Origin: Mytilus trossulus
Taxonomy: Eukaryota
NCBI RefSeq assembly: GCF_036588685.1
Contig: NC_086379.1
Coordinates: forward strand, 77,686,001-77,750,000
Direction: 5' to 3'
DNA: 64,000 nt
In this document: positions 161-60,519 of the stretch, piece by piece
Layout: every line of letters begins with the position of its first letter
How positions within the stretch are numbered: position 1 is the first letter of the stretch
Translations under genes and position numbers: made by a program
Notes under the pieces: generated by a model
What the model saw: only the letters and a program-made list of their open reading frames with translations
Told to the model about the DNA's origin: nothing
The model's database searches: none

Positions 161-11499
<11,339 letters not shown>

Positions 11500-15284: not shown

Positions 15285-17204
15285 TAATGCCCAATATCGT
15301 ATAAGCTTACTAAAACAGGCGGAACATATCATGGGGACACTCAAAACCGACTAAGAAAATCGACATTTCCTTGGTAAGAAACAAAAAAAGACGAATAGAT
15401 CAAAACACAACATAGAAAAGTTAACTGTATTGGTATTTGATAGATCAAAATACAAATTATTTCAACGTTATTGTCAGTTAATATGACAGCAACATCTGAG
15501 CCAAATAAACCTGTGACAAAAGTATTTGTTGAACGATACGCGATATATTTGCAGTGGTATGGTTCATTTTACGAATTGTACGCACAACAAGCTTTTGATA
15601 TAGCCTAGTCGACAAGAATCTTATTTCCGAAACAAAACCTACTTTGCATTTTGATTATTATTTCTACGCCTACTCAAACAACTAGTTTTAATGATATTCA
15701 TTTCTTATATCAATTATTTACATTTGCAAACTATAAAAACAAAATGGAATGCATAAATCGACAGTTTGCATAGTCTATATATAGACTGTTTGTTTTACGA
15801 CTATTAACTAATTCCCGTATTTTGCTGCAAGACATCTCTGAAGAGGGTATCATTTATCTTTAATATCTACCACAAGTATATTTTAAAGACTAGTTCATGT
15901 ATTTGGCGTTCCTAATGAAGGCAAATACAGAAAAGCGCTTCAGATGCACTAGATTTATAAATAGTTGTTTTCATTATTCAACTTTTAGGTGCTGGCCTTT
16001 TTCTCATTTTGAAACAAATACGGCTGTGTAAAAATCATTGGTTTAAGACCAGTGCACTGAATCTTCGATGAAGATCAAGTGATGTTTAGATGCTGCTGAC
16101 CTTTTTTTATTTTGTCTTTTTGGGTACCTTGATAACAGTTCCACAGTTTCATTATTTGTGCTTTTAGAATGAATATTATACATTCAGTAATATATTCATG
16201 ATTCGTAATCACCATTTTTAGGCAATAACTCACATCATAGACTTTCATATCACTTCATATATTCCATTAATTCTAGTCATTGTGAATGTAAGTTTATGAT
16301 AAAGAGAAAAAAATTAAGTTATTTGCATTCACACCATGCACCATTCAATATTATAAAAAAAAGTAAAATCACCAAAATACCTTACTCCGAGGAAAATTCC
16401 AAATGGAGAGTCCCTAGTTAAATGGCAAAATCAAAAGCTCAAACACATCAAACGAATGTATAACATCTGTCATATTCCTGACATAGTACAGGCATTTTCT
16501 TATTGAGAAAATGGTTATAAAACACGCTTTCTGCTTCAAATATCCAATTAGAAAGACAGTATGATTTTACCCTGAAAAGCAATACCACAGACATGAATAC
16601 TTACTTATTACCAAATACAATTTCTGTTTCAATTGTAAAGTTTAAAAACAATTTATCTACCGAAAAATTTAAATTCACAATTATTCAGTATTTAATACAA
16701 ACTCATAAATGTTTTCAAATTAATCAACAGTTTTCGTGAAAAAGATAAGAATTCAACCTGCAGGCAGATAGAGTCTTTTTTTTTTTATTGTCAGCCGCTT
16801 AAGAAGTTTAAATGACTATAAATATGAACACACTGCATCATCTATGCATCAGAACCATGTATAGTTGACACCTAACATAAACAGAAATATGAAAAAGTAA
16901 ATGATCCGTACGGTTAAGTGCTACTTTTATTTATCAACAGTGGTATTTGCCTTTAAACTGTTCTCCAGTGCCAATATCTCAGTTGTTTTCCATTCGTTTG
17001 ATTTGTTTGAGCTTTTGATTTTGCTATATGAAAGGATCTTTCTATTTGAAATTTTCCTTTGAATTTGTTATTGTTGTTTTTTTACGTTTTAAAGGGGTTT
17101 TTTTTGGCCGAAGGTGCCAAGGAAATGGCGATTTTAAAGTTTTTCCTGTAGCGTATTGTTAAGCTTGTTTGTTGTATATTTGACCATTTTATAAAGTTTT
17201 TATT

Positions 17205-18182: not shown

Positions 18183-19440
18183 AAATCCAATAAAAAAGTT
18201 CCTAACTAAAATGTCTAAATGGTCAAATAAAAAAACTCAAACAAATGGATAACAACTTTCATATTCTTAACTTGGTGATTTCAACGACTTAATTCCTCTT
18301 GCATTATTTATGTAATGCTTTGAATTGTTAACGTAAAAGTAGTTGTTTCATTATCATTTTGGCGTTAATTTAGGATGAGTTTCTGTTTGATGTGTCGTCA
18401 TGCTTTGTAGAAGAACCCTTATGTGCCAACAGTTTTTTAAAAACAGTAATTTTCATAATTACTTTACCAATGATATGTCATTTCAACGCAGAAGTGCTGG
18501 ATAATAGAAAATGATTTAAGATTTGATGTTCAATATCTTATTAGTTTACCTTTTGTACAAAAGCATGTTTATACGAGTCAAATTTTCTGTTAAATTTGAC
18601 TAGTTTAAAGAACGAAAGATCAGAGAAGGTTTTTCTATACATTCATATAGGTTAAAATAAGTATATAAAGTCAGACTTTAATTTGTGTGGTCGTTTTGAT
18701 AGATTTTATTTTAAATCTGCCAGATTCCCCTACATATTTTATACCAATGTAGACTAGTCATGGTTATTGAACCTTATTCGGTTCGAATAGTTAATTTAAT
18801 ACTATATATTTAAATTGCTTAAGATTGTCCAGGCATTTAAATATGTTAGAAAGAGAACCATTTGTAGAAAAGTAAATCATCTATTTCAGTTGTTTTCATA
18901 TAGGATATTAAGTAGCACTGTATTTAAAAATTTTAAAATGAAAGAAAACAGCAGTATAGAGTTACAGTTGTATTGCATGGTTTATTAAGAAAGAAATGAT
19001 GCAAATATTAAATGATATTGTCAGAGTGTGGATATATTTTAATGGAGTTTAATGCATGTTTTTATAACTGATTATTAAATCTGCAGATTTACTTTGAAAC
19101 AACTATCCATGATCAACGAACAACGATAAAACAATAAATGTCACCGTTCGGCATTAAACAATGAGCGGAAACCATACCGTGTAATAAGCTTAAAGCAATC
19201 TCCAATAATGATAATAAATTGATCTTAAGACATGTTCAAGATTTATGGAGGAGATTGTTTATATAAACTTTTCCAAAGCTATAGTTAAAAAACAACTTTA
19301 AGTTTTTTATCATTGCTATGAACGAACAACAGTGTTTCTTTAACTTTAACTGAAATCATATCACTAATATCTTCGTTATATTTGTTTGACTTTGTAACTG
19401 CTATTTCGATGAGTATATTGTATACGAATCTCGTCTAACG

Positions 19441-20003
19441 TACATATACTTTTCCTGTTATCTATGATTTGTACACATACTTTTCCCGTTATCTATCATA
19501 AATAATACATATACTGTTCCTGTTATCTATGATGAGTACATATACTTTTCCTGTTATCTATGATTTGTACACATACTTTTCCTGTTATCTATGATTTGTA
19601 CACATACTTTTCCTGTTATCTATGATGAGTACACATCCTTTTCCTGTTGTTTATGATGAGTACATGTACTTTCACTGCTATCTATGATGAGTACACATCC
19701 TTTTCCTGTTGTTTATGATGAGTACATGTACTTTCACTGCTATCTATGATGAGTACACATCCTTTTCCTGTTGTTTATGATGAGTACACATCCTTTTCCT
19801 GTTGTTTATGATGAGTACACATACTTTTCCTGTTATCTATGATGAGTACACATCCTTTTCCTGTTGTTTATGATGAGTACACATCCTTTTCCTGTTGTTT
19901 ATGATGAGTACACATACTTTTCCTGTTATCTATGATGAGTACACATCCTTTTCCTGTTGTTTATGATGAGTACATGTACTTTCACTGCTATCTATGATGA
20001 GTT
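19441..20003 (+). repeat. 31-bp minisatellite, about 18 copies, derived from the retrozyme 3' end
   Basis: Unit acatacttttcctgttatctatgatgagtac; preceded by a degenerate hammerhead (19408-19443) and ending in tatctatgatgagtt as the retrozyme does. Confidence 0.9.
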
Positions 20004-21502: not shown

Positions 21503-21901
21503 CTAAGAGATAAACTGTTTGTCACGGCTTTGTTCCTCCATAATAAACCAGTTCCGGAATTTTGCTGGTAGCTGTCCTTGGGGAGGGTGTCGTTTATCCT
21601 TTGCACAAGCATTTTTAATAGACTCCGCTGTAAATATCTCAGCTTTTCTGGCACTCATAAGGAAACGAATATAGCTAGATACTGTTGGTTGGTTAAGGCT
21701 TAGTGCACTGAATTGTTTTGGTCTTGCCGTTGGAGGTCTTTTTGTTCCTTGCAGTTCCTGATCCTTGTTTGACCTTGCTTTTGGCGTATTTAACCGTTCC
21801 ACTATTTTGTTGACTTCATATTTAGACTTTGTTTGAAAAGCAGGTGCTTTTTGAATGAATGTTTTATATTCAGGTACATATTCGTAATTCCTTTTCGACA
21901 T
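21503..21901 (-). CDS. Uncharacterised basic protein, paralogue 1 (132 aa, single exon)
   Basis: ATG-to-stop ORF sharing YEYVPEY..I.KAPAF, VERLxTP, LNQPTVSSYIR, I.NAC, HPP and F/YRNW blocks with the ORFs at 23673 and 28995. Confidence 0.85.
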   Translation of the reverse strand: MSKRNYEYVPEYKTFIQKAPAFQTKSKYEVNKIVERLNTPKARSNKDQELQGTKRPPTARPKQFSALSLNQPTVSSYIRFLMSARKAEIFTAESIKNACAKDKRHPPQGQLPAKFRNWFIMEEQSRDKQFIS

Positions 21902-23672
21902 TTTACAGCATCAATTCAAGTCATGAATTTTTTATAATACAGCTGGTATTTCATATGTTGTTTTTTTTATACTTTCAGTATTTTTATAGGTACTTATATA
22001 GAATAAAACATAAATTCCATTTTAAAAAATGCTGAAGAAGTCATAAAATGATTGACATTCACACCATGTGGCAATCGGTGTTACAAAACACAAATTTTAC
22101 TTTACAAAATCCCATTAGAAACACGGCATGAAAACCAATCGAAACAAAATATACTTTCATCCTGATAATCTTAAAAAACAATTCACAAGCATTATCACTA
22201 CAGAACGTAAATACTTCATTTCTAAAATTGTCACTTTCTCCAGAAAATATAATGTTACATACCAAAAGAGTAAATTTGCCTTTATATGCTTGTTTCTTTT
22301 TAACACAAACTCGTAAAAGTTTCAAATTAAACTTTTCAATAATAAAAAGTCTTTTAAATTTTGTCAACCGATTGAGTAGTTTTATTAAAATAACATGCTG
22401 TATTATATATGTATCATATTTATAATATATATTTTATATTTACATAAACATGTTAATATAAAAAGTTTTGCATCATGTTATCATATAATTTTTTAGAAAA
22501 AAAAAATGAACGTAAAACTGTATAATGTATTTTGTGTATAATTTGCTGTATTTGGCAAGACTTTTTGGAATTTTGGTCCTCGATGCTCTTCAGCTCCGTT
22601 CTTTATTTTACCTTTTTTACTTTTTTGGATTCGAATGCACTGGTGGGTCTTTAAATTGAGGACTTGAATTTTGAATGGAAAATCTCCACAAAAATTACCA
22701 GATAAAACTGAATTCTAAATTGAATTTAGATGTATCTGGATCTAAGCGATTCAGATTTGTACTTAAGCAACAGCACTGAGATATTAATCATTCCAACTCA
22801 TCCCATTCCATGTATATCGATTTATTCTTGACTACCAATTTAACGTTTGCTGAAAATTTACATTTATTAAATTGTATCCGATTAACATAACTTTCAAGAT
22901 AATATAACAATTTAGTAAAATTCATTTTATCTTTGTTTCGCCATCTTATATTCTTCTCAAAAAAAATTGTGATATATGAAAAAAAAAACTCATATATTGA
23001 TGACAACCATTGCTTAATCACAAGATTCCGTGATTAAGATTAAAGCCACACGTGACAAAGAAAACATTATACACCAAATGATTAGCTGTATTATCGACGA
23101 ATACACAACAGTCACATATCCTTTAATTCATGTTTAAAGAGTAGAACAATATTAATTCTGTACTGTATCAATAATTCAATATTTGTTTCTGAATACTTGT
23201 ATTGTGTTTATTTTAAATGTCACATTTTTCTTTACTTAATTGATTTTCTTATACATTTTTACTGATATAATGTTTCATATTTTGATAACTGTTTTAGGCA
23301 AGATTGATACAACAAAGGTGTCAATGTTGGTCCCTTTTGGGAGATATTTTGCTACAACAGGGTCATACATAACATTAAGGACATTAATTAAAAATACAAA
23401 GCAAACTTAATTATTTCGTGTAAATTGAACATTTTAATTATATGTTGAAATAAATCATTTTGAACTGATAAAATATAAACGGGCTATGAATCTATACAAG
23501 AAGTTAATTGTGTAATCTATGTTGACAAATGGTTTGGAACGATCATAAATTGAAAAAAAACCGTTAAAACAATGAAAGTATTGTATATCCCACATTTTGT
23601 TGTTTCATAAAAATTAATAAAAAAAAGATTTAATTTAAGAAATAATGCAGAAAAGGGTAGTCTAATGTCAAA

Positions 23673-24137
23673 ATGAGAAACCAAAGGATAATTTACAGAG
23701 GCCCGGGATTTGCACCTCTATCCAAAAGTGTTAACATCGTCAACTATGAGTACTTTCCAGAATATATTACTTACATTCCTAAAGCACCTGCATTTAGAGC
23801 AGCTTCTGGTGACAAGATTAATGAGATGGTGGAAAGATTAAGCACTCCATCATCATCAGCTAGCAGAAGAAGCAGCAGCAATAGGGAACCATCCATAGAT
23901 AAAAAGGGCATCGTTCAATCATCACCGGTAGACTGCAGATTAAATATTCTTAGACTGAACCAACCAACTGTATCAAGCTATATAAGATTTCAGATGAGAA
24001 GCAGAAAGGATCGATTGATCAATGTTGAGGATATAAGGAATTCTTGTGATAAATATAACAGGCATCCTCCACCAGGATATGTACAAGCGAGGTATAGGAA
24101 CTGGTTGACTGTAGAGGGACATACACTCTGGAATTAA
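23673..24137 (+). CDS. Uncharacterised basic protein, paralogue 2 (154 aa, single exon)
   Basis: Same conserved blocks (YEYFPEYITYIPKAPAF, VERLSTP, RLNQPTVSSYIR, IRNSC, HPP, YRNW); AATAAA about 170 nt downstream. Confidence 0.87.
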   Translation: MRNQRIIYRGPGFAPLSKSVNIVNYEYFPEYITYIPKAPAFRAASGDKINEMVERLSTPSSSASRRSSSNREPSIDKKGIVQSSPVDCRLNILRLNQPTVSSYIRFQMRSRKDRLINVEDIRNSCDKYNRHPPPGYVQARYRNWLTVEGHTLWN

Positions 24138-26774
24138 GAACTAATGAACCGCATATACAAAATGCATAATGTAAAATTTCTAATTTTGTTTTGTTTTGTA
24201 AGGCATAGTTTAATGTTTATTCTAAGTGGAGACACTTTTCAAGACGGTATTAACAAGTTTGACATTCAAGTGCTTCGTGTTGCTACAATTGAATAGAAGT
24301 AAGTTATTAAATAAATAAAGAGAAGATAATTCACTACATATCGGACTGATTTACTGATAGTTTTATTTGTATTGAAGCCAATATATCCCTAATATACCCC
24401 TAAAGATTACATATCAAAACCAAATGATAATATTAAGAATGCAAAATTCAGTTGGTAAGATATGTCTTGACGCGGGCATCTTGTTAATGATAATTTATGT
24501 AAAATGACAGCGATATGTACGGCACTAAACAACAAAATTCTCTATTGTTCTATATCATTTCGCCGGATAAGCCGAATATGGCTGTTGATAAAAGGATACG
24601 ATATCGTTCAACATAAAACTTGATTGTCTTATTTCGATTGTCTGCTATATTTCGTATAAAGAGTATCAAAATTGTACTTTTTTTTATAAGTTCCATAAAA
24701 GAGCTATTGAAAGTTTAATTTGTATAGTGTTTACTATTATTTCTATTATCATATATAATTCAACAAGCACAAATTGTATGCAAATTTACCAAAATCTAAG
24801 ACATAGTCCATTTACCGTTCCGTGACATTAATCATAAGGAACATATTGCTTCTACATCTTAAAGACGAACACTGTTCACGTTGCACTCCGTTAAGTTAAC
24901 ATGTTGTATAAATATATTTCTCAATATATAAACCATGATCTAGGAAGAATTGTTATGGCTGTACGATTTTTAAATACGCAGAAGGACAGTTTATTCAGCA
25001 CTATTTCTTTTTGGATAAAATGAAAATAACACGTTATTGAGTGCATGCGTCCGCAACGCTATATGGATTTCCTTTCATCAGAAACGCTCAAAACTGTATA
25101 TAATTCCGGAGCACCTAATATCACGGATTCATGTTGCTTAGTCTTTAGTTTTCTATGTTGTGTTGTTTGTACCACAATTTGTTCTTTTTTTCTTTTTTAG
25201 CCATTACGTTTTCGGTTTATTTTCGATCTATGAGTTTGAATGCCCCCTTAGTATCTTTTGTCCTCTTTTGAAAGCCAAGGATGTATAAGAACCGATTCAT
25301 TCGAAGAGCTATATAACTACAACGGAATGTAAAATACCCAAATATATCTAAGGTGAACATTGTTTTAGGTAGTTGAAATTTTATTTTCTTTAAAAATTTC
25401 AAGTTAAATTTATTAACAGAAAATATTTGAAAGGTTTATTATAATTACATGAACGGTAAATTTTATTACACCAGATGCACGTTTCTTCAGTTATGCTTGA
25501 GACCAACATTTAGAAAATCCAAAGCTTATTTAAATGACGAAGAACTATATACCAACAAAGGACGAAAATGGACAAAGCCGGGCAAGAAATTAGAGCTTTG
25601 CATGAGAGAGATACATTCATTTATCAACATAATTTCAAATATTTTGTAATGCATATTTTAATTTGACAAATTTCATTCAAAATTTCATGTTAGTATCGAA
25701 GAACTGACAACTGAGCTGTTGATACCCTCGGTTACTTATGGTCCACAGTAGAGGTATCGACCAAGTGTTGCAAAAAAATGAAAACAATGTAAACTTTTCT
25801 AAAAGCAAGACAAAATGCTTTGTCTTCACCTGCATGCATATGAAATTCCTTTGTTAATGAGTGTAACATAATTCAATCGATTCTCCATATAAATTGATGC
25901 AAATTGTCTGTGTACAATGAGTGTTTTAAATATAATTTCAAATTAATATCAAACAGGAAGTGTTTGCACAGTGTATGTTAAACTTTTTAAATTTGTCAAC
26001 TAGGATGTAGCTGCACGATAGATCTTACAACTAATTATACGCTACAACTCAATATTATCAAGATGCAGACCAAACATAAAAAGCATTCCAATTAAAAACC
26101 AGGAAATTCTTATCGAACTTATTATTAATTGCACTAAATGATAGAATAAGACAGCAAGATCAGAAAAAAATGCACTTACTGAAATCTGCATTCTAAGTAC
26201 AAAACTGTTTATTGTCAACCTAGATGAAAGAAGACCGCTTCTTTTATAGAGATAAATTACGATCAGCATCTTTTGCATTATCAGTACAGAAGTGTATGCA
26301 ATTTGGTATTGTCAATTACTTACAAATTCACATTCATAATTCTCTTTTCCATGCAAGAAATCAATATATGTGTATTCAGTCTAATAATATACAATGATAT
26401 TAATTAATAACACCATCGATTAAATGCAATCTAAAACGATGTCTGTGTACTTTGGTACTTTTAGTTTTCTTCAGCTCTTTGACGTTTGAATTTTTTTTGG
26501 GATTCAAATAATTTAGTCTCGTGCATCACTGAGAAGCCATTAATAGTCAAAATGCGCATCTGGTGCAGTAAGATTGATACCGCTTATGTGATTAGACCGC
26601 AATTTGTATTTTGTCTCACTAATATGTTTTTCATACCTTTACCATGGTAACTTGCTTATGATTTACTATTTGATTTTTTTTTAGACTACTAGTACTCCGA
26701 ATATTTTTCCAGAACTTTGGACTACTTATTTCTTGAAAGAGGAATGAGCTAACGTAAAATAAATTTTCAAATTT

Positions 26775-27087
26775 TGTTTTTTGTAGAGTTGAAAAAAATA
26801 ATTCTAGCGCGACATTATTCTGTAGCGTGGCTATTTTATTTATTGTGTCTGTTTTGTTCACGCATCGTTGTAAATATAACGGGATTTGATGAGACTTCCG
26901 TACAAGTGATAGGTTTAGCGCTATAAAACCAGATCCAATCCACCATTTTCTATATTTGAAAATGTCTGTACCAAGTCAAGAATATGACAGTTGTTGTCCA
27001 TTCGTTTGATGGGTTTTGTCATTTGATTTTGCCATGTGATTACGGACTTTCCTCGGAGTTTAGTATTTTTGTGATTTTACTTTTTTG
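26775..27087 (+). mobile_element. Dispersed repeat (family 3)
   Basis: Reverse complement of 39118-39390; further pieces at 16360-16515 and 16975-17090. Confidence 0.7.
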
Positions 27088-27717
27088 TTAAATTAGCGAA
27101 AGTGTTTTGGTTCTATTTAGTTATTTGAAAGCGAATACATCATAAAAGTTAAATTGTAGCTTGAACATAATTTACTTTGCCTTACAGAAACCAAAGGAAT
27201 ATGGATTAGATTCTGAGAACAATCCCTATAAATCAGAGCGATAATAAAAATAATAAAAACATTTCTCGAACTCATCGCACAGGCACCTTATATATGAATG
27301 TGTTAATGATGAGTGTCATTATCACTTTGTTTGTGATAATAATATTATTTCAAAACTCAGAAAGAAATACATTTCTAAATATTAAAATATTGCAAACACT
27401 TCTGTACTGAAAATGCAAAACTTGATGTTTGTTATTTATCAATAAGCGGTCTTCTCTAATCTAGTTAGATACATAAATAGTTTAGAACTCTTTATAGTGC
27501 AAATTTCATAAAGTATTTTTTTCTGATTTTTCTTTATGTTATTCTGTCATTTAGTGTTGTCAATAAGAACGTTGTCCTACTGTTACATATTTTTGTGTCT
27601 ATTTGTATAAAAAGAATTGAAAAGAACTGATTTTAATTAAGACAAAGGTTTTGTAGTTGCTCATACTACATAATAGTTTGATTAAAACGAAATTTTGATT
27701 GCCTTTACAACATTGTT

Positions 27718-27811
27718 TTATTCGAGCGTCACTACTGAGTCTTTTGTAGACGAAACGCTCGTCTGGCGCAAATATACAATTTTGATCCTGGTATCTATGA
27801 TGAGTTTATTT
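27718..27811 (+). mobile_element. Retrozyme 3' fragment with mutated hammerhead
   Basis: CTACTGA-GTCT/AGAC-GAAA-CGC...GCG-CA followed by the cctggtatctatgatgagtttattt terminus. Confidence 0.8.
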
Positions 27812-28994
27812 GCTGAATACGAAAACTTGTCATATGCGAATGTGAAGCATGACGTGTGACCAGTCAACTTTCCAAACGTCAAATGTATAAACAAAAACCT
27901 GGTGCATTTACTTTTTTTAATACAAGAATATAGAAACGTGATTTATAATATTCAAAGTAATACAAAGTGCAAACTCAAGTGACATTTTCACACATGCATG
28001 CAGGTGTATGCATATAAAAATTGAACATGAATATAGGACTGATCTTTTATATAAAACCCAGTACTTTCCATCTTTGGTTTTGTGTGTAGTGTTTTGTGAG
28101 CTGCTGTCTGTTTGCTTCTTTTGAATGCCCCTTGGTATCTTTCATTTGCAAAGCAATACATGTACTAATCGTCGAACGCTATCGTTTCGAACAAAATTCA
28201 ATTCTTCATTTAATATGTCTAATGCATTGCTGCATATACGGCTATATATTCAATACTCATAATATTTCTTCTTCAATTTGATAATTCATTGCATACATTT
28301 TTCAATTCATTTTTCTTCTTCAGTTCTTGGTAGAGTACAGTAAGCAAACACCAACATCATTGTCACCCGGCAAAAATTACAAAATGATATAAGATATAAG
28401 ATACTACCTTAATTTCTTGTCTTTTTTGGTGCGGTGACCTATACTTATATCTTTTTAAATTAACGATACAAGATTTTTTGCATATATGAAATATTCTGTC
28501 ATATGTTGGTCAGAATCCCAAACTGCCTTTATACCTCTGTAAGTTTAGACATATGACGGTGGAACACACCAGGCTGGGATTTTTAATTTTCGGCTGGTTA
28601 TTTTAAGTGCATTCTTTAAACGACCGTATATAGTTGAGATATATTAATTATCTTTTTAACTATATTCAATCAGTTTCATTTTACTAAATGCTTACCAAAT
28701 TATCTATACAAAGTCTGTGGTTTAAAAACAAGTTAATACTAGTATCTGTTTTAAAAGTCAACTACTGACAAACTTTAAAAGTTCACATTTCACATTCACT
28801 ATTCCATGCAAGATATTAATATACGTTTCCAGTGTCAACACATTCTGTTTTATATCTTCTTTTAATATATTTGTAATATTACCTAAGAACACAGTTGATT
28901 AAATGCAATCTAAAACGATGTCAGATCTGCTAAGCGATTGAGAAATGTAATTTATAACACATAATAGACAGATACATCAAGTAAGGCCTAACTA

Positions 28995-29603
28995 TCATAT
29001 ATCATAATCTAACGAGTCTAAACTACTTTTGTTGGTATTTGTTGATAGAAAGCTAGATCTCATACTTTTCGAACCATTTACATTCAACCAATTCTTATAC
29101 GCCATTGGAAAATACCTTTGAGATGGTGGTAAATTAAGTCTGTCACAAGCATTTGTAATTTCTGTTACCTTCAATTTTCGTTGATTAGCACTCCTCATTC
29201 GTAGCCTGATTTTACTTGCTACTGTTGGCTGACTTAATCTGTCAACGCTACAATTTTGAGATTCATATGACGACGGCTCTGGGTGTAGAGATTTTATCTC
29301 CGATTCAGTTTCCAATTTAGGAGTTCGCATCCGAGGTGTGTATAATCGTTTAGATATTTCTGTCGCTTCACTTCCCGACACAGTTCTGAATGCGGGTGCT
29401 TTTGGGATGTATGCCTTGTATTCCGGAACATATTCGTAGGTGATTAAACTAGTTTTAACATCCACAAAAACAGGCTTTCTGCCACATTTTCGATGATTTT
29501 CTACTTTCCGTTTCATTGTCCTGTTCTCTAATGAAATGTTTGTGCTGTAAATATTCCTAATGTTGTGTTTCTGAACAGATTGATACCCTGTACTGAAAGC
29601 CAT
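28995..29603 (-). CDS. Uncharacterised basic protein, paralogue 3 (up to 202 aa from the first ATG; start uncertain)
   Basis: YEYVPEYKAYIPKAPAF, KRLYTP, DRLSQPTVASKIR, ITNAC, YKNW. The ORF track starts at GTG 29627; the first ATG is at 29603 and an alternative at 29516. Confidence 0.85.
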   Translation of the reverse strand: MAFSTGYQSVQKHNIRNIYSTNISLENRTMKRKVENHRKCGRKPVFVDVKTSLITYEYVPEYKAYIPKAPAFRTVSGSEATEISKRLYTPRMRTPKLETESEIKSLHPEPSSYESQNCSVDRLSQPTVASKIRLRMRSANQRKLKVTEITNACDRLNLPPSQRYFPMAYKNWLNVNGSKSMRSSFLSTNTNKSSLDSLDYDI

Positions 29604-30048: not shown

Positions 30049-30517
30049 GATTTGTATTGTCGTAAGTAATTGACATTTGTCTGGTGAACCAGTGTTTGTG
30101 CAGATTGTGAAACCGTTTATGTATAACAAGTATAAGAGATTTGTATTGTCATATGTAGTTGACATTTGTCTGGTGAACCAGTTTTTTTGCAGATTGTGAA
30201 ACCGTTTATGTATTACAAGTATAAGAGATTTGTGTTGTCGTAAGTAATTGACATTTGTCTGGTGAACCAGTGTGTGTGCAGATTGTGAAACCGTTTATGT
30301 ATTACAAATATAAGAGATTTGTATTGTCATATGTAGTTGACATTTGTCTGGTGAACCAGTGTTTGTGCAGGTTGTGAAACCGTTTATGTATTACAAGTAT
30401 AAGAGATTTGTATTGTCATAGGTAATTGACATTTGTCTGGTGAACCAGTGTTTGTGCAGATTATGAACCAGTGTTTGCGCTAATTATGAAACCGTTTATG
30501 TATTACAAGTATAAGAG
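30049..30517 (+). repeat. 89-bp tandem repeat, about 5 copies
   Basis: gatttgtattgtc...acaagtataaga recurs at 30049, 30138, 30227, 30316 and 30405. Confidence 0.92.
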
Positions 30518-31695: not shown

Positions 31696-34600
31696 CTATT
31701 TATTTGTAGGTCGACCGTCATCGTCACAAGTAACAGAGTCTGCCCAGTCACAAGTTATTTTCTTTGGATTAAATCTTAATTCACTTGGACATCTATAATG
31801 GAATGTTCGTCCCATATGACATACAAAATATTTATTACAGTTATTTGGGTCTTGAAAATATCCAAATGGTTTTCGTCTACACGAGAATGAGTCTGAAAAA
31901 AACAAAAGTAAATTGAATTGAAATATTTTTTAAATAAAGCAATTGAAAATGGAGCATTAATATTATGTTTTTAAACATATATCCAGAGTTTCCTCATAGT
32001 TTGACAACTGTCGTTCCTGATTTCTCTGGGCCAGCAGTAGAACGGTAGCTTAAATTGGTGTGTTTGATTCTCCGGAATGCCAAATTACGCGGCCATGTCC
32101 TGTCGAAATGGGGGCGTACGTGTAGCGTAAGTGCCAAGCTTTCTGCACATTACATTACCCTTTCAACAACTCTCTAAGGTTCTGAATATACATGAAATAC
32201 ACTCATATACAGTTCATCCGAGTCCATATAGAATCCATAAAAAGAATAATAGTTTAACTATCAAGTGCTCCCTGGTCTAATTCTTCGTTATTTGTCGGGC
32301 TTCCCCTACGTTCCATTTACAGCAAATATTGATTTTAATGGAACTGGAATCATTTTTTAATGATACACTTTGTTCATAAAATGGTATAATTTTATTAAGG
32401 TACTAAAAGTATGGTTGACTCAGGCAAATCATTTAGAATGAAATTCAAAACAGTGTGGCTGTGGCCATTGATTGACACATTAAATTTATCCATTGACTAG
32501 GACAATTTAAGTGAACGTTTGTATGTAACGACCACTGCTCACAATGCACTTTTAAAAGACACTTAAACTATGGGGTCACCAAAGGTTCTCAACACCTAAA
32601 TAAAGTAATTCGAAAAATTAATCAGAAATAACACGATTTTTTGATTTATATCAATTATATAAATCAAAACATAAAGATTATTCCTGATTAATTTTTCGAA
32701 TTATTTTATAATTGAAGGCGTTTAGAAACCTTTGGTGACCACACAGTGTAAATGTCTATAGTAGGTACGTCGTGAACAGTGATCGTTACATACAAACGTT
32801 CACGTAAATTGTCCCAGTCAATAAATGAATTTAATCTGTCAATCAATGGCCACAGCCACACTGTTTTGAATGTCATTCTAATTTAAGTTCAAAATTTAAA
32901 TTGTGAAATACGATGTAGGCAGCAACGTTAGAGAATTGTATAATGAAACTAATAAGTATAACTTAAATATTAGTCAAAGGCGGCATAACTCAATATATTT
33001 ATATTTATAAGGTGACAAACCTGATTTCTTATAGAAATTAATATTGAAATTTAAAAAATACCTAAATACGACCGGGATATATTTATTTCATACATATGCT
33101 TTCTGATATATATACACTTTTGATGTTTTTATGATTGAATTCATTAAATTGCATGGACAATAAATTTAACAATTGTTGATTATACAATGATAGTATTTGT
33201 GTGTGTGTTATGTTACTGAAAGTTAAAAAAAAAATCAATGTAGAAATGCAAAGTGATACCATTGAAACACAAATTACATTTTGACACATTCAACAATTCC
33301 ATCCAATTTTTAAAAGGATTAAAAGACAATTTTACAACAGAAATGATGAACTGTCTTTTTGGATTTTTAGATTCACCTTCACCAGTACTAATAATTAATA
33401 ATTGGAACCCAAGGATGTATAAAAACAAACTTGAACAGTAGAAAAGTAATAAAGAGCATAAAGATAATAGTCAGATAGCTCTAAAGTGACACAAAAGATA
33501 CTTGAATTATTCTTTGATATCATCATAATTACAAAAATACTAGATTTTAAAGATACTACAAAGCGGTGTTTTTTTAATGCGAGTACAACCCCTTTCAATC
33601 ATAATGGATCTGTTGGTCTTCTTTATCAAAAATTTATTACGTGGTTACAATTACACTTTTACTTACATTTTCCGTAAACCATCGCGGTTGGTGCCCAGAT
33701 TGCAGGTGGTGCTATCTTATTGGGTTCGGTTTCGTAGTGTAAATCTGCTGTCCACAACTTTGTAGTAGCTTCCGGTATTGGAGAAAATGTAGTCGGAGTT
33801 TTCATCGTCGTCGTCGTCGTTGCTGTAGTCGTTGTTACTGTTGTTGGGGTTATATGACGAGGTGTTGTTGTCTTCGGATCTATTTTTCTGGTCGTACTTG
33901 ATGTGAGATTTAATACTTTAGTTCTTTCTATATTTTTTAATGTTGATGATAATGCATGTGTCAGAGGAAATGGTACTACTGATGATGAGCATGTTTTACT
34001 GAAGTCATCCAGGGATAGAGACCAGACCATGCTACCACCATATCCTTCTCTAGCTATCCATTCTGCCTACAATTAATACAGTTATACTGTTGAATAGTAA
34101 TTTGGTTGGAGATGATTCACATTTCGTATGAGTCAAACTGGGATTTTATTCATTCAAAGCATTAGAAATTGTGTAAACAGAACAAAATCTATCTTGGTTT
34201 TTGCTAGTATGTATAAGGCTCCGTGTTGAAGGCCGTACTTTAAATTATATTGGTTTACTTTTAAAAAATTATGACTTGGATGGAGAGTTGTTTCATTGGC
34301 ACTCATGACGAGGTAACAGTAGTCAATTGGAAGAAGTTTGCAATAAATATAGTAAAAAAAAACAGAATATATGTCTTCAGTGATCTGGTAACGGTTTCAT
34401 TAGCTGCAAATAGCGAATAAATGTAAAACAAACTATCAAACACTCGATATTTTGGCGTCTGCTCGATGTTACAGCTGGTGATGTCCTAGACCTTGAAAAG
34501 TTTAAAATAACATAGGTTTCTTGTTTAAAAAATGTCTGTTCATTTACTATATTTGGCTTTATAAGAGGGTTGATCTCTGGTACGCCACTTTTAAGCACCT

Positions 34601-37600
34601 GGATATTGAATTTACCTTAGTTCTCACGCTGTCCTCGTCGTCATAGCCGATCCACAGATCTCCTTTCACATAGTAAGGCACCATTTGTTCTTCATCTCTG
34701 TATACCTTACCTTGGCCGTCTTTTTGCAACTGACATATCTAGTTTGATATAAACAATATAAATTAAGGTTGTATAAATTTCTCTTTGTGTATTAGACAAA
34801 AACAATATAGCATAAAAAAATACTTGCATCAACAGTTAACAAAATTGAAACAAGACTATTTGGCCTTGAATGTTTGCCCCTAATATTTTATTAACTGTGC
34901 ATTTGCATTCAGATATCGGAGATAAAATTTATTGGTTCATAGTGTATTAATTTACGTTTTTTGATTGAGTTAAGCCTGCCAATTGATATTTTATCGTGTG
35001 TTGTCTATGTTGTGATGTTATGCTTTGGTTTCCGGAAAAAGGGAGAAGGTTTGGTACCATTAAAACGTTTAATCCCGCTGCAAATGTTTGCACCTGTCCT
35101 AAGTCAGGAATCTGATGCACAGTACATGTTTCGTTAGTCTCTAGAGAAACTTGAGAAGTTGTTTTGAATTTTCATGTTCGAGTGAACCATTAAACAAGTG
35201 GATTCAATGCATTGTCATAAATGAACCTAGAGTTTTTATAATTTTTGTGCGTCTGTAACACTTTTCTGAATATACCTTCAATGTGAACGTTTAAACCCAA
35301 ACATTCTAAAGCAAGGGAGGTAATAATAAATGAATGTGCGAGTTATACGACAGGAAGTGACCACATGGACCAATCAGTTAGTTGTTCACATGTTGTTTAA
35401 ATATGCTTAGCGTTTATACATTACAAAATGTTCATTTGCTTAATCTAAAGACTTTCTCTTAAATCACTTACATATTTATGTTTTTTGTTCTTATTAGAGA
35501 AACATTTATTAAACATTATTTTTTAATAATTTTTCCATTACTAGAGAAACCTTTTTTCATACAGTTGTCACACATAAATTTTTATTCATGAAGATTCAAC
35601 AAAGACGTTATAGTAATATACCTCGTAATATGAATAAAATCCTATTTCCTGAGTAAATGATCCTTTTGGACCAGGTCCGGTGACAGGTGCACCGATACCA
35701 AAATCATTGACTGGATCTGCCAGAACAAATGACCGACCATACGTTGCTATTCCAATGTTGAGTTTATGTTTAGGTGTGCCCTTAGAAACCCAGTACTTTG
35801 CTGCTTTCTCCTGAAAAAATATAGTCTTTACAATAAAAGAAATCTTATGGTTTTTCACAGAAAAATAATTCTTACCGTATTTCAAAGTAAAGTTGTAATT
35901 GCTATAAAAATGTGTATACAAATAACTATTGTTAAAAAAATAAATAAAATGTTTAGTCAAAGCGGACAACATTGAACTTAAATACATTGTACCTTTATTT
36001 TAACTGGAAAATCTTAGACTTCTAGTTTATATAAATGTATATAATTTCTGTGTTCCTATTTTAGTGTCATTTTAGTTTTTTGATTGAACGACGTCCAGTC
36101 CTGCATATTTAGTGTTTGAAAAGACGTATGACATGACACCGGTTGACATGACACTATATAATATTATAGTAATACTATAATATTATATAGTGTCATGTCA
36201 ACCGGTGTCATGTCATACGTTTTTTCAGTTCATACATGTGATTTTTCAAAACTCTTTCAAACTAATCTAACATTTTCTAAATTTAGGTTTATTCAGTACA
36301 CCAATGTTTTAAGTAATTGTCACGATGTTCTTAAAATTGACATTTGTAAATATGTATGGAGCTTGTAAAATATCTCACCCATGTTAATTTATTTTGTTTG
36401 TAAATGTATAAAACTAGAAAAACTATCTAAGACAATTAACCCTCATGTTTTTCTTTAAACTTTAATTCCATTTGACAAATTAAATAAATACCATAGAAAG
36501 TAATCAGTTTCATTTGTACAACGGGGTTTAATCATATGTGTTTGAAGCTATCGTTATAAAACAAAATATTTTACAATAGATATTGCTGCTGCAAAGCTAG
36601 CATTTTTCTATGATTATTCAGTCGTAAAACCATGCCTATATAATGCAGTCACACCACTGACAATTGGGCAATTCTTGTTTGGTTTTGTGTGGAATCAGTG
36701 TAATTATGTTCTTTTACTCTTTCTAAAACGCGTATATGATTCCAAGCCAGTTTTTAATGCCTTGTTTCTGTCTCTTGTCTTAATTTTATAGTGCTTTTAT
36801 TGTATTCTATTTTAAAATTGGTTGCCTCCTTATGAGTTTTTCATCGACATTTTTGGTTTCCGTGTAATATGGTTTATTAACTCCACAATTTCCTCAGTCA
36901 TAATAACTTTCCATCATTACCGAACTGAACAAAGAAATAACACGACGGGTGCCGTATACGGTACAGGAAATGATTATGCTTACCCTTCAGGGGCACCTGA
37001 TTTCACTCCCGTTTTTAGTGGAGTGCGTGTTGTTACTTATTTATTATTTTTAACTGTTGATGTAAATGTCCCTTGATTTTGTGAGTCTTAGTTTACTCCT
37101 TGGTGTTGATTGTTATTGTCTCCTCTGATAACATATCATATCACGATATTCACTTGGCAAGGATTACAATAATAACATATCATATCACGATATTCACTTG
37201 GCAAGGATTACAATAATAACATATCATATCACGATATTCACTTAGCAAGGATAACAATAATAACAATATCATATCACGATATTCACTTGGCAAGGATTAC
37301 AATAATAACAATATCATATCACGATATTCACTTGGCAAGGATTACAATAATAACAATATCATATCACGATATTCACTTGGCAAGGATTACAATAATAACA
37401 ATATCATATCACGATATTCACTTGGCAAGGATTACAATAAAAACATATCATATCACGATATTCACTAGGAAGGATTATATTACGATAATGTTCCCTGTGA
37501 ACATGAGGGGTTGGACCTTATCTTTTGGCTTACGAAGAAGCATAACACGAGTCTGCTGTTTTGATGTTTTACAATATGATTAAGCAAAGACTTACGGTGT

Positions 37601-40600
37601 TCATGTTAGCAGAACCAGTATCCTTGCTGCTACCAAACAATGGACTATTATGACCTGTTTTCCTTTCCCATCCGCCATGAAAATCGTATGACATTAAGTT
37701 TAGAAAGTCCAAATATCTGCAATAATGAACATTTAAAATTAGGCATGTTTTATGATTATGTAAATTCGTGTTTGCATAATTAAACAAATGATATCATTTG
37801 ATAATTTCCCGTTCCTAGAAAACTGATCAAAAGCTAAGTTGGTTTGACAATTTCATTTTAATAAATATTGGTATAATATATGTTTTGTTGACACAGAAAA
37901 AAAGTAAAAAGGTAATGTTGTAAAAGGGTACAATTATCAATTTAAAACTATTGATAAAGCCCAGACTAAACTGGTTTTAACTGATTCTGCTTTTGTCGTA
38001 GACTGGTGTTTGATTATAAACGGGTGCATTTCTATGTCATCGTTTTGTCGGCCATGGTTTTGCTTTGCTTAAGCATTTAGGTTCAACCGTTAACTCACTA
38101 AAATTTTGAATCATCATCTACGTGGATATGTCGGAAATGTTTAGAGAAGAAGTATATACAATTACAAACCTAATAAATCAAGTACAATAAAAAAAAAAGT
38201 CACGGCAGTATGCCAAGGAGGAGTATTTGTAATTTTTAAAATTATCTTTACTATTGTTGTAAAGTCTTTCAACCACTCTTTCGGTTGTGTGTGATTTGTT
38301 TGAAATGTTTACTAATATATTTAACGCTCTGTAAAATGCGCTTTGTGTGCAGTATTTATTTACGATTCAAATATATACCCTTACTTAGATATTTACGATT
38401 CAAATATATACCCTTACTAAGATAATGTTGGTATAACTGAAACCTTTACACCTTTCCACTTCCGCTGAGACTAGTAGTTGTTGAGACTGTACGCGGTGCA
38501 TACAATGTGTTTTTTAATATGATTTTACTCACTTAGATAGTGTTGGTGTATCGTAAACCGAATATTAAACATTTCTACCAATAGGAGCAGCAGCTTATGA
38601 CTATGAGTTGTGTACCGTGTTTTTTTTTTATGATTTAGGTATGTATTATACTTGCTTAGATAGTGTTGGTATATCGTATCCCGAATCTACCACCTTTCTA
38701 CCAGTAGGTACCGCCGCTGAGACTAGTAGTCTACGACGTAAAGATTTCTGTGCCTCCATATCAAAAGCCTCTTTAATTTCCTACATCAAAAATAGAACAA
38801 GCATTGAAAAGCTGTAATTGTTGTAAAATGGATCTTGATGATACTAATATTATTTTCGGGGAATGACCATTTTATTTTTTTTGGAAGAGAGAATGAGTAA
38901 ATAACTTTGCACAAGGGTGAATTAAAATGAATATTCAGCAACACAAAATGAATGAATCAAATATGTGCAAAAGTGAAAAGATGCATAGCAACAGATGACA
39001 ACAATTGATCAATCCAGGGGAAACTATCCTACCTTCACCCCCTCCTTAAACCAAAAGCTTGGTCCCTTATTATAATGAGACGAAAAATAAAAAAAAATAA
39101 TAATAAATATGCATTTTAAAAGTAAAATAACAAAAATACTGAACTTAGAGGAAACTCAATTCGGAAAGTCCATAAGCACATGGCAAAATCAAATAACAAA
39201 ACGCATAAAAAACGAATGGACAAGAACTGTCATATTCCGGACTTGGTACAGGCATTTACAAATGTAGAAAATGGTGGATTAAACCTGGTTCTATAGCGCT
39301 AACCCTCTCACTTTAATGACAGTCTTATCAAATTCCGTTATATTTACATTGATGCGTTAAATAAACAGACACAATAAATAAAATATTCAAAATATGGGTA
39401 CATCAGTCATCATCGTATAACAATTTTAAAAGGAACAATTTAACAGAACAGAAAAGCATCTACTATCTACGAACACATTGATTGATTTGAGTGTCTGACG
39501 TCACAAATTGCTTTATACGTCACATAAATTTGTCGTTCAATGTGCATACAAACAATTTTAAAATTTACATAGGCAATGTTAGCATACAGGTGTAAAAAAA
39601 AAAGTATGTAAGAATAAATTTGAGAAATAGACCGAGATTTAAACTAGTATAGTTAATTCCACTACACGATTGAATGATTATGACGTTTTTGGTTCAACGT
39701 ATATAGTAATTCATAATAGAAATATATCATTATGACATATAATAGAACAATATCATACTGACGGGATCTTTTAAAGTACAGAGTCACGTTATAAGAACAA
39801 AAGAAATACAAAAAGTCGCATATAGAAAACAAACCACCAAAAAATGAAAGCCAATACAAACACATAGACGAGATGTATAAGTACCGAGCCACGTCAAACG
39901 GATATCACATAAAACCATTCAACAGTAAAAGTAATATTAATAATAGAACAAAGACAAATGAAAGAACAATGAAACACGTTGTTAAGATGATAAACAATAT
40001 CAGTACGCAGAATCTATACACCAAGACCATCGTGTTTGATACGGAATAGTTATCAACAAGGTCTTAGTACCTTCCGATGTTAAACGATGTTAAATAAAGG
40101 CAAAAGTAGTATACCGCTGTTCAAAACTCATAAATCCATGGACAAACAAGAATGTGTCCTCAGTACACGAATGCCCCACTCGCACTATCATTTTCCATGT
40201 TCAGTGGACGGTAAAATTGTGGTAAAAACTCTAATTTGGCATTAAAATTAGAAAGATCATATCATAGGGAACATGTGTACTAAGTTTGAAGTCGATTGGA
40301 CTACAACTTCATCAAAAACTACCTTGACCAAAAACTTTAACCTGAAGCGGGACAGACGGACGGACGAACGGACGCACAGACCAGAAAACATAATGCCCCT
40401 CTACTATCGTAGGTGGGGCATAAAAACAAAATTGGGGTAACAAACTACAACCGAGGGAAACGCTAAAACTAAATTCAAAGTTGAAGGTTGTAATGAGAAC
40501 AGCACAAATTTAGTGGAATGAAAATAACTTGAATTACCTTAAGAAGGAGGGCAAAGTTAGGTTTATCCTCCATTTTCCCTTGTCTGAGAGTTGGATATTC

Positions 40601-43600
40601 CCAGTCGATATCTAATCCATCAAAGTTGTGTTTACGTAAAAATTCCATCGTAGACATTATGAACGTCATCCGGTTTTCTGGCGTCGCCACCATATCAGAA
40701 AAAGCTTTACTGCCTGCATTCCATCCACCTATAGCTAACATTGTCTTAACTCCTCGTGTTTTATTCTTTTTACCATTGAATTCTTTATACCTGAAAACTC
40801 AAATAAATAACAGTCAATTAAATTATATAATGTGTATCAATGATTTAAATTATATTTTAATCATATATTTTTGTTTTGATATGTATTAGAACAAACGGTT
40901 TTGGTCACAATTAAATCTTCATAAAATATATATTACGCATAGAAATGAATGGATATGCCATCTTTTAATTGCCATCTTTATTAAAAGATATAATTTTCGC
41001 TGATGACTGCATAAAATAATACATTTTGTTTGGTATTGTATGGTTGGCCATCTTTGTTCGCATAACAATGTGAAACAAAACACAAATTGAATGTTTACAA
41101 TTATTTGGCTTTTTAACTATTTTGATGTGAGCGTCACTGGTGAGTCTTCGGTCTGGCGTATCAAAAATATAAGATAATTATATGTGTTTGTAATGTCAAA
41201 AATAACTTACAACTTTTCATCATTGTACTCTGTAAACACAAGTTTCTTGCCTTCCAATCTAGCAAATGCATAAACAATATGTGTACAGAGATCTGGGTTG
41301 ATATTGTCAGGTGTAAACTTGGCGCCATTGTTACGATACTGGGCCCAGTTAGTGAAGTAGCATATTCGTCGAAAAGTCTTTATTTCTGAAAAAAGAAAAA
41401 CTTACTCAAAGTCTACTTCCAATCAAACATAAACACGAGATATTTTAGTTGTTTTACTGTTAGAAGACATTTCTTCCAGAAAAGCTACTGCTGATCTTAA
41501 CATACAACTTAGATCTTTGGAAACAAAAATAGTTCTCAAAATGCATTTTTTTCTTTTGTCAATTGATGATAAACTCTAAGGGGATGAATTTAAGCTGCTT
41601 TTGAAATATTTACCGAACGTAGAAATAGGAAAATACATGCTGATGGTGTCTATGCATAGATCACAAAAATTGCTTGAATCTTAGATATACTACTAGGTTG
41701 ACTCTTTTTGTAAAAGAAAAGAGGAACGAAAGATACCAAAGGACAGTCAAACTCGTAAATCCAAAACAAACTGACAACGCCATGGCTAAAAATGAAAAAG
41801 ACAAACAGAAAAACAATAGTACACATGACACAACATAGAAAACTAAAGAATAAACAACACGAACCCAACCAATAACTAGGGGTGATCTCAGGTGCTCCGG
41901 AAGGGTAAGCAGATCCTGCTCCACATGCGGCACCCGTCATGTTGCTTATTTGATTACAAATCCGGTAAATAGTATAATTCGGTAGGTCAAATTCATGAAA
42001 GGGAAGGGGATTGTAGTTACGACGTAAGGAAAATATCCGATATCATTTGTGAAAGGGTTATTCCATAACGGTCAACCAACTCGTGATGGCGTTCGTAAAA
42101 TTTACGAAGGGATGATTGTAAATGTTCTTACCCTGTGTTGTCAGCTATGTAATCAGTGTTTCGGTACTGAGATGTTTTATTGAATATTTTTCTTAAATTT
42201 TGGAAAGACAAAATGTATTAAGAAAATAGATTCACGAGTCACTCAGAAAAATTTGTCCTTACTGAAATGTGTTTGGCTATTAGTGTTTTGTCCCTATTGG
42301 TCATCCCGTGTTTCGAAACTTTTACATCTTTGGATTCTATTATTAGGCCGCAGGTGTTTCTGATAAAGTTAATCCAGAAAAGCGCTTCTGAGTTTTCTCG
42401 TTTGAATTGTTTTACATTGTCTTATCGGGGTCTTTTATGGCTGACTATACGGTATGGGCTTTGTTCGTTGTTGAAGGCCGTACGGTGACATATAGTTGTT
42501 AATGTCTGTGTCATTTTGGTCTTTTGTGGATAGTTGTCTCATTGGCAATCATACCACATCTTTTTTTATAAGATTACTAAGGACCAATTTTATATTTTTT
42601 ATTACCACATTGTTCATCTGTCCCATCTAAACAGTCTTGATCACCATCACAGACAAAGGCATTGTTCACACAGACTCCATTACTACACTGAAAATTATCA
42701 TCCGGGCATCTTCTCGTGTTATCGTCTGTTCTTGCTAAAATATATCAAAATTAATCATGCTTTTTGTATATCTTTAACTGATTCACTGTCTTTATCGACC
42801 AAAATTTAGCCTCCAAGTCTTTTCCAAAAATATGTCACGAAACTCGTTAATTTTAGAACCAAACTATGCACTTGGAAAATCCCAATGCAAAGGTATCGCG
42901 CTTCTACTGCTGCCAAATGTCACTATTTGCGGGAGCTTTCACCCATGGAAGCTCCCAAATGGAAACTATGTGAGCGATTTGTGTCCACCATTTTAAACAA
43001 AACAGTTAATTTAACAATGCTATAGGCTTTTAAAAGTATGTAGAAGCAAATAAAAACAACATTAAAATACATTTGTAAGCCCACTTGAAGGTTTTTTAGG
43101 ACTACAAAAGAGTCCTCCTGTACGTATACATGGCGATTTGAAAAGTTTTCATGTAAGCTACTGCTATGCATCTGCCTACGAATAAAAAAATCCCTGCACG
43201 ACCGTCTAAAGCAAAGGCCAACACATCTCACTGTAATTTCACACGAAGCAAAAAACAATGCAAGTTCAAACGGCGTTTAAAATCCATCAAATAGGATGGG
43301 GTATAAGTGAAAACTGGATGGGGTATAAGTGAAAACTCGACAACAGTCAATTCGTCCTAACAAGAATCTAAGTTTAATCTAGAATTTGATATAAAAGTGA
43401 TATATGACTTACGACAGGATTGTTCATCTGAACTATCAGAGCAGTCTGGATCATTGTCACACACCCATTGTTTCGGTATACATGTACCAGTCTTACATCT
43501 GAATTGTGTTTCTAAGCAGTCTTTAAGTTAAGAAAAAACGTTCATTAATATATAATCACTGTCTGTAAATCAAACGATGCTCTCGCCCACTATCAAATCA

Positions 43601-57823: not shown

Positions 57824-58511
57824 AACAAAATAACAAAAAGAAAGTTGAATTTCAAATTTTCACATGGAATAACCGGACTCTTTGTTTTCAGAATATTTAG
57901 ATCTTCCCCTTATGAACTTTCCATAACATATTGTAAGTTGTCATAACAAATTCCATATGTATATTGAATAATTCGCGAATAAACTTTTTTTTTTTATTCC
58001 TGGTTTCAGTGTAACGTACGATGTATAGGACATTATATTTTATGAGTTCAGGCGTTCAGGTGTATGTCAATGTAAACTGTTACTGGTGAGTGTCCATAAG
58101 CTCGGTTTTATAATTGAAACTGGTGAGTGACCATTGGTTTTGTTTTATAAACTGTAATGTCGACAGTCCTAGCTTGAAAGATGATAATGAAGTTTTATAG
58201 AAAGAGACCTAGTATTCCTTGTCATAACTGAATTTATATTTATAAGCCTACTTACAGAACAATATTTAGAGCTTGTGACCGAACTATAAGATCTGGTTAA
58301 CATTCATGCAATTGATAAACATATCACATTTAAATCTTGGTGAAATTTTAACTTTGGATAACCAAAAATTGCTTCTGAAATGCGGAAACGAGAAACTGAC
58401 TTTAAAGAAATATGATAAATATCAAGAAGACTTGTCCTTTTTTGTAGATTTCGATAGTCAGTTTCAAACGGGAAACTAATTAAATGAATTTCGACAAACG
58501 AGACGACTTTC

Positions 58512-59950: not shown

Positions 59951-60519
59951 CGTTCGCACTATGGTCGTATCTGTAACAGATTTCGTTCGTTTCCACAAGT
60001 TTTTATTTTTCTTCGATTTCGATCAGTGAACTTGACTTGCAAATGGTGTAAGCAACTAAAAACAGGACAAATCTTTACAACATTCTTTTGTAGATGCAAA
60101 GATTTTGTTTGGATGTTTGACTGCACCTGTTGTTTGGTTTGGTTTGTTTTTATTTATTTGGAAAATTCGATAGCAGATCCTTTTTATTATAAAAAATTCT
60201 TTCACAAATATAGATTCGCATACGCCACCTTGAAAACGAATAAGCACTGTTAAAGTCAATGTTCTGTTGGAATTGTGACTGTTAAAGTCGAGTTTGTGAG
60301 TCCATCGAACCCCCCTTTGGAAATTCCTGGCTACGGGCCTGATTCGAGACGGTTAAGAGCTTGTTTTATATGTTGTAGACAGTAGACACATGTCTTTTGC
60401 CTTCCAAATTTCTTTGTAACGTTGGTTACTATGTCTCATTGACCAATAAAAACAAACGTTTGCTTTTTTATTATATGCAATTTTCATTATTTTAGTGGCA
60501 CATCTAGAAATTTTCCATA

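Follow-up and report, generated by a model that had tools for sequence, protein, structure and literature searches.

We analysed a 64,000-nt stretch of Mytilus trossulus DNA (the window; all coordinates are positions in it), in which three short open reading frames (ORFs) had been predicted to form a cluster of intronless paralogues of an unrecognised protein family. All three ORFs were re-located in the predicted arrangement, on the minus, plus and minus strands. Their positions and parts, together with those of a decayed fourth copy that the original prediction had missed, are as follows.

15704 to 16263, minus strand: pseudogene of gene 1 covering the whole coding region (nhmmer E 8e-10 and 2.8e-05)
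21503 to 21901, minus strand: gene 1 (P0001, 132 aa), a single uninterrupted ORF read from 21901 to 21503
21548 to 21700, minus strand: gene 1 degenerate repeat 2 and C block (Cys, Pro pair, Trp), by alignment
21782 to 21886, minus strand: gene 1 aromatic/Pro block and helix repeat 1 (Arg36), by alignment
21902 to 23672, no strand: AT-rich spacer of 1771 bases between the divergent genes 1 and 2
23673 to 24137, plus strand: gene 2 (P0002, 154 aa), a single uninterrupted ORF
23745 to 23849, plus strand: gene 2 conserved block and helix repeat 1 (Arg55), by alignment
23952 to 24104, plus strand: gene 2 repeat 2 (Arg94, with a diverged upstream helix) and C block, by alignment
28995 to 29603, minus strand: gene 3 (P0003, 202 aa), a single uninterrupted ORF read from 29603 to 28995
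29088 to 29273, minus strand: gene 3 repeat 2 (Arg122; predicted helices 113-124 and 128-141) and C block, by alignment and model
29334 to 29438, minus strand: gene 3 conserved block and helix repeat 1 (Arg86; predicted helix 77-88), by alignment and model
29541 to 29603, minus strand: gene 3 N block of the family, residues 1-21, by pattern match

The three ORFs matched one another in tblastn searches within the window (E 4e-19 to 3e-31); the proteins are 38-46% identical in pairs, and the blocks are invariant in a three-way alignment. ORFs of at least 130 aa starting with ATG were absent from 17 of 20 base-shuffled windows, and the other three contained one each. The coding regions of genes 1-3 are single-exon, and introns in the untranslated regions are possible. 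As predicted, the proteins are basic and have no transmembrane segment: their isoelectric points (pI) are 9.9-10.1, Lys and Arg are twice as frequent as Asp and Glu, and the maximum 19-residue hydropathy mean is 0.58. Gene 3 is the most complete paralogue: it has the N block, both repeats with the linker between them, the C block and a Ser-rich tail; among the window genes, only gene 3 has the N block. The claim that an R-L-x-x-P element occurs twice per protein was correct for genes 2 and 3 and failed for gene 1, in which Ser68 replaces the second Arg. Genes 1 and 2 stand head to head with their ATGs 1771 bases apart, in agreement with the predicted distance of about 1.8 kb, and may possess a common promoter. 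Poly(A)-type hexamers lie 169 and 177 bases 3' of the gene 2 stop.

Profile searches yielded 49 proteins, then 92 representatives (50% clustering) and then 23; one of the 92, P0116 (2919 aa), was discarded as a chance match. The family comprises approximately 100 divergent proteins, and every named member is from a bivalve or gastropod; the same was true of all 7 of 20 distant clusters that carried names. Its range within spiralians is possibly wider. The earlier statement that no named domain is present was upheld. Pfam returned no family for the three proteins (one match, E 0.17), and for 86 family members at E up to 0.1 there was no fitting family among the matches listed, which covered 25 of 29 families; within these, the best match of any family had an E of 0.0029 and involved a single member. 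No description of the family was found in a literature search by locus identifiers and family terms, which extended to main texts and not to supplements.

We then aligned 97 family proteins, the union of three profile sets (A3, A4 and A5, described below) with near-duplicates and fragments excluded. Four blocks were recognised: an N block, whose pattern occurs in 66 of the 97 proteins; an aromatic/Pro block with more than 90% conservation at five positions, which leads into the first repeat; repeat 2, with Thr and a second Arg after it; and a C block of Cys, Pro and Trp that only some members have. Repeat 1 and repeat 2 aligned to each other with an HHalign probability of 97.6%, and repeat 2 was the best window other than repeat 1 in 85 of 96 proteins; judged by these comparisons, the two repeats are homologous at the family level. 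The RLxxP motif of the original prediction proved to be part of a longer unit of approximately 20 residues, i.e., an N-capped helix with Glu and with hydrophobic residues at -6, -3, -2 and +1 around the Arg, followed by Pro-Thr. The conserved Arg is present in repeat 1 of all 97 proteins and in repeat 2 of 84% of 96. The median hydrophobic moment was 0.54 in repeat 1 and 0.41 in repeat 2, compared with 0.30 elsewhere. The locus holds intact, conserved ORFs of a mollusc-wide family with a two-copy repeat and a conserved Arg. The two Arg residues are 30-76 residues apart in the family (median 47) and 32-39 apart in the window genes; in P0120 of Plakobranchus (1295 aa), the two repeats are approximately 630 residues apart by eye, and the linker is therefore free. 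We also considered LxxPTPh, the motif that binds end-binding (EB) proteins, and rejected it, as none of the repeats in the three proteins has Pro at position six.

A pI of approximately 10 and the twofold excess of Lys and Arg would suit small basic proteins that bind nucleic acids or chromatin, for example in the germ line. However, what is conserved is mainly hydrophobic, Pro and acidic residues, not bulk charge, and Pfam gave no match to a nucleic-acid-binding family; we consider this function quite improbable.

Orthologues were found for each gene. Those of gene 1 (P0017 and P0019) are 132 aa long and 84-86% identical to it; those of gene 2 are 154 aa long, with 89% identity in M. edulis and 84% in M. 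coruscus; those of gene 3 are in M. galloprovincialis and M. edulis (RefSeq 'uncharacterized'). The nearest named proteins all come from these three Mytilus species and are all annotated 'uncharacterized'. In a quick tree of 114 rows (midpoint root; support from the Shimodaira-Hasegawa-like approximate likelihood-ratio test, SH-aLRT, only), each window gene clustered with its own orthologues (support 100, 98 and 97), and genes 1-3 fell within one 33-row clade (support 96) together with four M. coruscus proteins. These four lie on contigs of identical size (10,017,236 bases); equal contig sizes also tie other paralogue clusters (201,443; 55,762; 4,142) and two scallop members (335,914), which is indirect evidence for conserved clustering of the paralogues. 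Two metagenome scans for the locus found none. Between paralogue pairs, the proportion of synonymous differences (pS) was 0.68-0.80 and that of nonsynonymous differences (pN) 0.34-0.42 over all aligned codons; pN within the blocks was 0.24-0.34, a value biased by the choice of blocks. Genes 1-3 are, on this comparison, old paralogues, each with Mytilus-level orthologues, and the low pN and the separate orthologue clades bear out the view of the original prediction that they are old duplicates under purifying selection. Three copies of gene 2 within 90% identity (P0004, P0139 and P0140) lie on one M. edulis scaffold (1,721,866) and are either recent tandem copies or assembly duplicates. Further M. 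edulis and M. coruscus paralogues (P0007, P0012 and P0025) have no intact counterpart in the window; they include forms of 268-277 aa with an internal short repeat and of 205 aa without the Pro block.

The predicted cluster of three therefore stands as three intact ORFs accompanied by the overlooked pseudogene, which lies approximately 5.6 kb from gene 1 on the same strand. Stops and frame-breaking indels interrupt it, and a short internal stretch is duplicated; in its alignment with gene 1, which has many indels, 334 of 452 bases are identical, and its local score of 132 exceeds every score in 474 control windows (62 or lower). A decayed sister copy so close by raises the question of whether the three ORFs are themselves silent relics. 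We regard this as very improbable, since the orthologues keep frames and lengths, pN is well below pS, and the blocks are kept over the linkers: against M. edulis, gene 2 retains 51 of 53 block positions and 22 of 32 linker positions (20-22 of 32 over the gene 2 comparisons). The contrast between blocks and linkers is slight in gene 1.

Two AlphaFold2 models showed both repeats as confident isolated helices, with a predicted local distance difference test (pLDDT) of approximately 85-92 and predicted template-modelling scores (pTM) of 0.34 and 0.27. Each repeat is therefore predicted to be a short amphipathic helix in a chain without a compact fold. Other predicted helices in the models lie outside the repeat pattern, and a set of at least four repeat-type helices was not found. 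With these two low-pTM models, Foldseek gave no match at E 0.001 and the VIA fold search reached a best Z of 3.3-3.4, with no ArcMAP or MOP23 chain named; all structure rows of the Atlas had template-modelling (TM) scores below 0.35. When gene 3 residues 54-140 were modelled in complex with alpha-tubulin only (an animal-type stand-in) and with no alignments, the score was 0.01 and the mark 0.34; a search for beta-tubulin gave none. Separately, eukaryote-type alpha-tubulin was observed on short contigs of several bacterial GTDB assemblies (L003, L008, L014, L015 and others), probably as contamination.

We searched 177,635 PDB sequences with four profiles: A2 (8 sequences), A3 (86), A4 (37) and A5 (54, none common to A4). 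With A3, MOP23C and MOP23A ranked first and second of five matches (E 1.3 and 2.2); with A4, MOP23A, MOP23C and ArcMAP2 ranked first to third of seven (E 0.068-0.86); with A5, MOP23B and ArcMAP2 ranked fourth and fifth of five (E 0.72 and 2.2), after two designed repeats and 2m0n. Two of the structures concerned, 9e5c and 9y6s, are the T. brucei and L. tarentolae doublets. The ArcMAP and MOP23 chains are probably related to one another, so that the matches count as one event, and we infer that MOP23 and ArcMAP are orthologous. In the alignments, the N-cap, Glu, Val, Arg and Leu fall in register, and the Arg spacing of MOP23A, read by eye, is 40-42. A language-model feature search of the Atlas with two queries returned clusters from Euglenozoa (183 and 194 aa) that scored 0.87-0.89, below the bar of 0.9; from their size and taxon these might be the ArcMAP clusters, which we treat as a lead only. 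The matched class is the one guessed beforehand in the original prediction, which had proposed microtubule-associated proteins of cilia or sperm; that guess gains recurrent, specific matches, although these are weak and none is significant.

We compared the family with known systems as described in the literature (PMC7617938, PMC13406575 and PMC7441323). ArcMAPs are four paralogues with at least four helices each, which lie on successive protofilaments and often contact alpha-tubulin D431 via a conserved Arg; knockouts of two of them slow swimming (PMC7617938). The ArcMAP arrangement is a lateral arc across protofilaments B04-B08 with 8-nm spacing. Like ArcMAP1-4/MOP23A-C (9e78, 9y6s, 9e2g and 9e5c; 166-193 aa; PMC7617938), the mollusc proteins are small and multi-paralogue; their short helices likewise carry the N-cap, Glu, Val, Arg and Leu with an Arg spacing of approximately 40, and the conserved Arg recurs per helix, apart from the second of gene 1. 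Unlike them, the family has linkers of 30 to approximately 630 residues, and its N, aromatic/Pro and Cys/Trp blocks lie outside the matches. The ArcMAP niche is occupied on mammalian sperm doublets by the unrelated THEG-repeat proteins SPMAP2/SPMAP2L (PMC7617938), and outer-surface axonemal proteins are described as poorly defined by motifs (PMC13406575). Trochin and lophotrochin, spiralian ciliary-band genes (PMC7441323), are likewise lineage-restricted, with little or no outside similarity, and tied to cilia; trochin spans several phyla, whereas the named members of our family are all molluscs. In contrast to SPMAP2 and to lophotrochin (DUF4476), no member matched THEG or DUF4476 among the listed matches of the 86 members in Pfam. 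SPMAP2 and SPMAP2L resemble the family in being basic repeat proteins. We did not file the family as ArcMAP because it has two repeats rather than four and the homology is not significant; it probably works like an outer microtubule-associated protein (MAP) of the ArcMAP/SPMAP2 type while belonging to neither.

The interpretation that we favour, at about even confidence, is that the three genes encode proteins of the microtubule lattice surface, probably of cilia or sperm. Extended, non-globular chains would coat the microtubule surface, most likely of ciliary or sperm doublets. Each helix would lie on the outer face of one protofilament, where its Arg would pair with an acidic residue close to the C-terminus of alpha-tubulin (D431 in the case of ArcMAPs), and the free linker would bridge to the neighbouring protofilament. 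The N and C blocks may determine position or partners, and the paralogues may differ in the site, axoneme region or type of ciliated cell in which they act. Gene 3 would link two sites, and gene 1, without the second Arg, would hold via repeat 1 and the C block.

Several observations weigh against this interpretation. The best E for any ArcMAP or MOP23 chain was 0.068, and none was significant; designed helical-repeat proteins scored equally or better with A5 (E 0.063 and 0.3), so that a generic amphipathic helix can yield such scores. The A2 profile and the single queries P0089 and P0003 returned no ArcMAP chain in the PDB. The family has two repeats against four in MOP23A, and repeat 2 scored -23.7 in gene 1 and -9.5 in gene 2 under the repeat-1 matrix, i.e., it is degenerate or partly so. 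The best-conserved block (Pro/Ala/Phe before repeat 1) lies outside the ArcMAP matches and is unexplained by them, and the Arg of this motif would correspond to the one contacting D431 by analogy. These points would fit a convergent amphipathic docking helix for a partner other than tubulin, such as actin, a kinase or phosphatase, or a motor subunit, with a compositional likeness to ArcMAP: all E values in the PDB exceed 0.06, designed repeats rank alongside, and the strongest block is not part of the ArcMAP-like region. However, ArcMAP/MOP23 chains come up repeatedly among natural proteins, both with two profiles that share no sequence and in the Atlas features, the register matches and the spacing is similar. 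We therefore judge the docking helix unlikely, though the strongest of the alternatives.

The ciliary assignment within the lattice-surface interpretation also has a point against it. A search with the RFX consensus gave no similar half site in the 1 kb 5' of the ATG of gene 1 or gene 2, nor near that of gene 3, and a ciliary promoter signature was not seen. The same helix could instead bind cytoplasmic microtubules in neurons, the spindle or the spermatid manchette, in the manner of MAP7- or tau-type lattice binders, as the outer alpha-tubulin surface is common to all microtubules. The end of the repeat may also resemble a stretch of MAP7. Nevertheless, the sole structural matches are axonemal, and expansion of small basic MAPs into lineage-restricted paralogues is characteristic of axonemes (PMC7617938, PMC13406575), which makes a cytoplasmic array improbable in our estimation. 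A bolder form of the lattice-surface interpretation would make the family the animal counterpart of trypanosomatid ArcMAPs, i.e., an ancient Arg-helix module of the outer doublet kept in molluscs, whose many paralogues would serve as a combinatorial surface code for gill, larval and sperm cilia, with the mytilid cluster still gaining and losing copies. We regard this as speculative and rather unlikely.

The cluster seems to be flanked by an ABCC-type transporter gene and a GH18 chitinase gene. Exons of the ABCC/MRP-type ABC transporter (Pfam ABC_tran and ABC_membrane) extend on the minus strand from 161 to approximately 11200; an exon resembling the first domain is near 10572-10762, and the cluster therefore seems to be upstream of the ABCC gene and not intronic. 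The GH18 exons, which include a CBM14 domain and a linker rich in Thr, occupy 31699-40798 on the minus strand. Farther along the plus strand, exons at 54087-55190 look by eye like the final part of a homeodomain gene (the piece tested had no Pfam match at E 0.001), and a DnaJ domain exon lies at 61776-62138. Tandem arrays were found at 19440-20002 (31 bases), 30049-30467 (89), 37128-37477 (45) and 58507-59955 (51); the 89-base array begins approximately 450 bases upstream of gene 3. Two short near-identical segments lie 2.5 kb apart, at 26417-26445 and, close to the 3' side of gene 3, at 28896-28924 (nhmmer E 0.36); they could be what is left of a further copy, or a small repeat.

No mollusc doublet structure was found in literature listings, and the family supplies candidates for unassigned densities in mollusc cilia and sperm. 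A repeat with one invariant Arg permits a direct test by point mutation. If the family is homologous to ArcMAP, a module known from trypanosomatids would span the eukaryote tree; if the likeness is convergent, the family would join ArcMAP and SPMAP2 as a third solution reached independently. The three genes belong to a real, unnamed mollusc family with a testable microtubule-binding hypothesis, in animals such as mussels, whose feeding and spawning rely on cilia and flagella.

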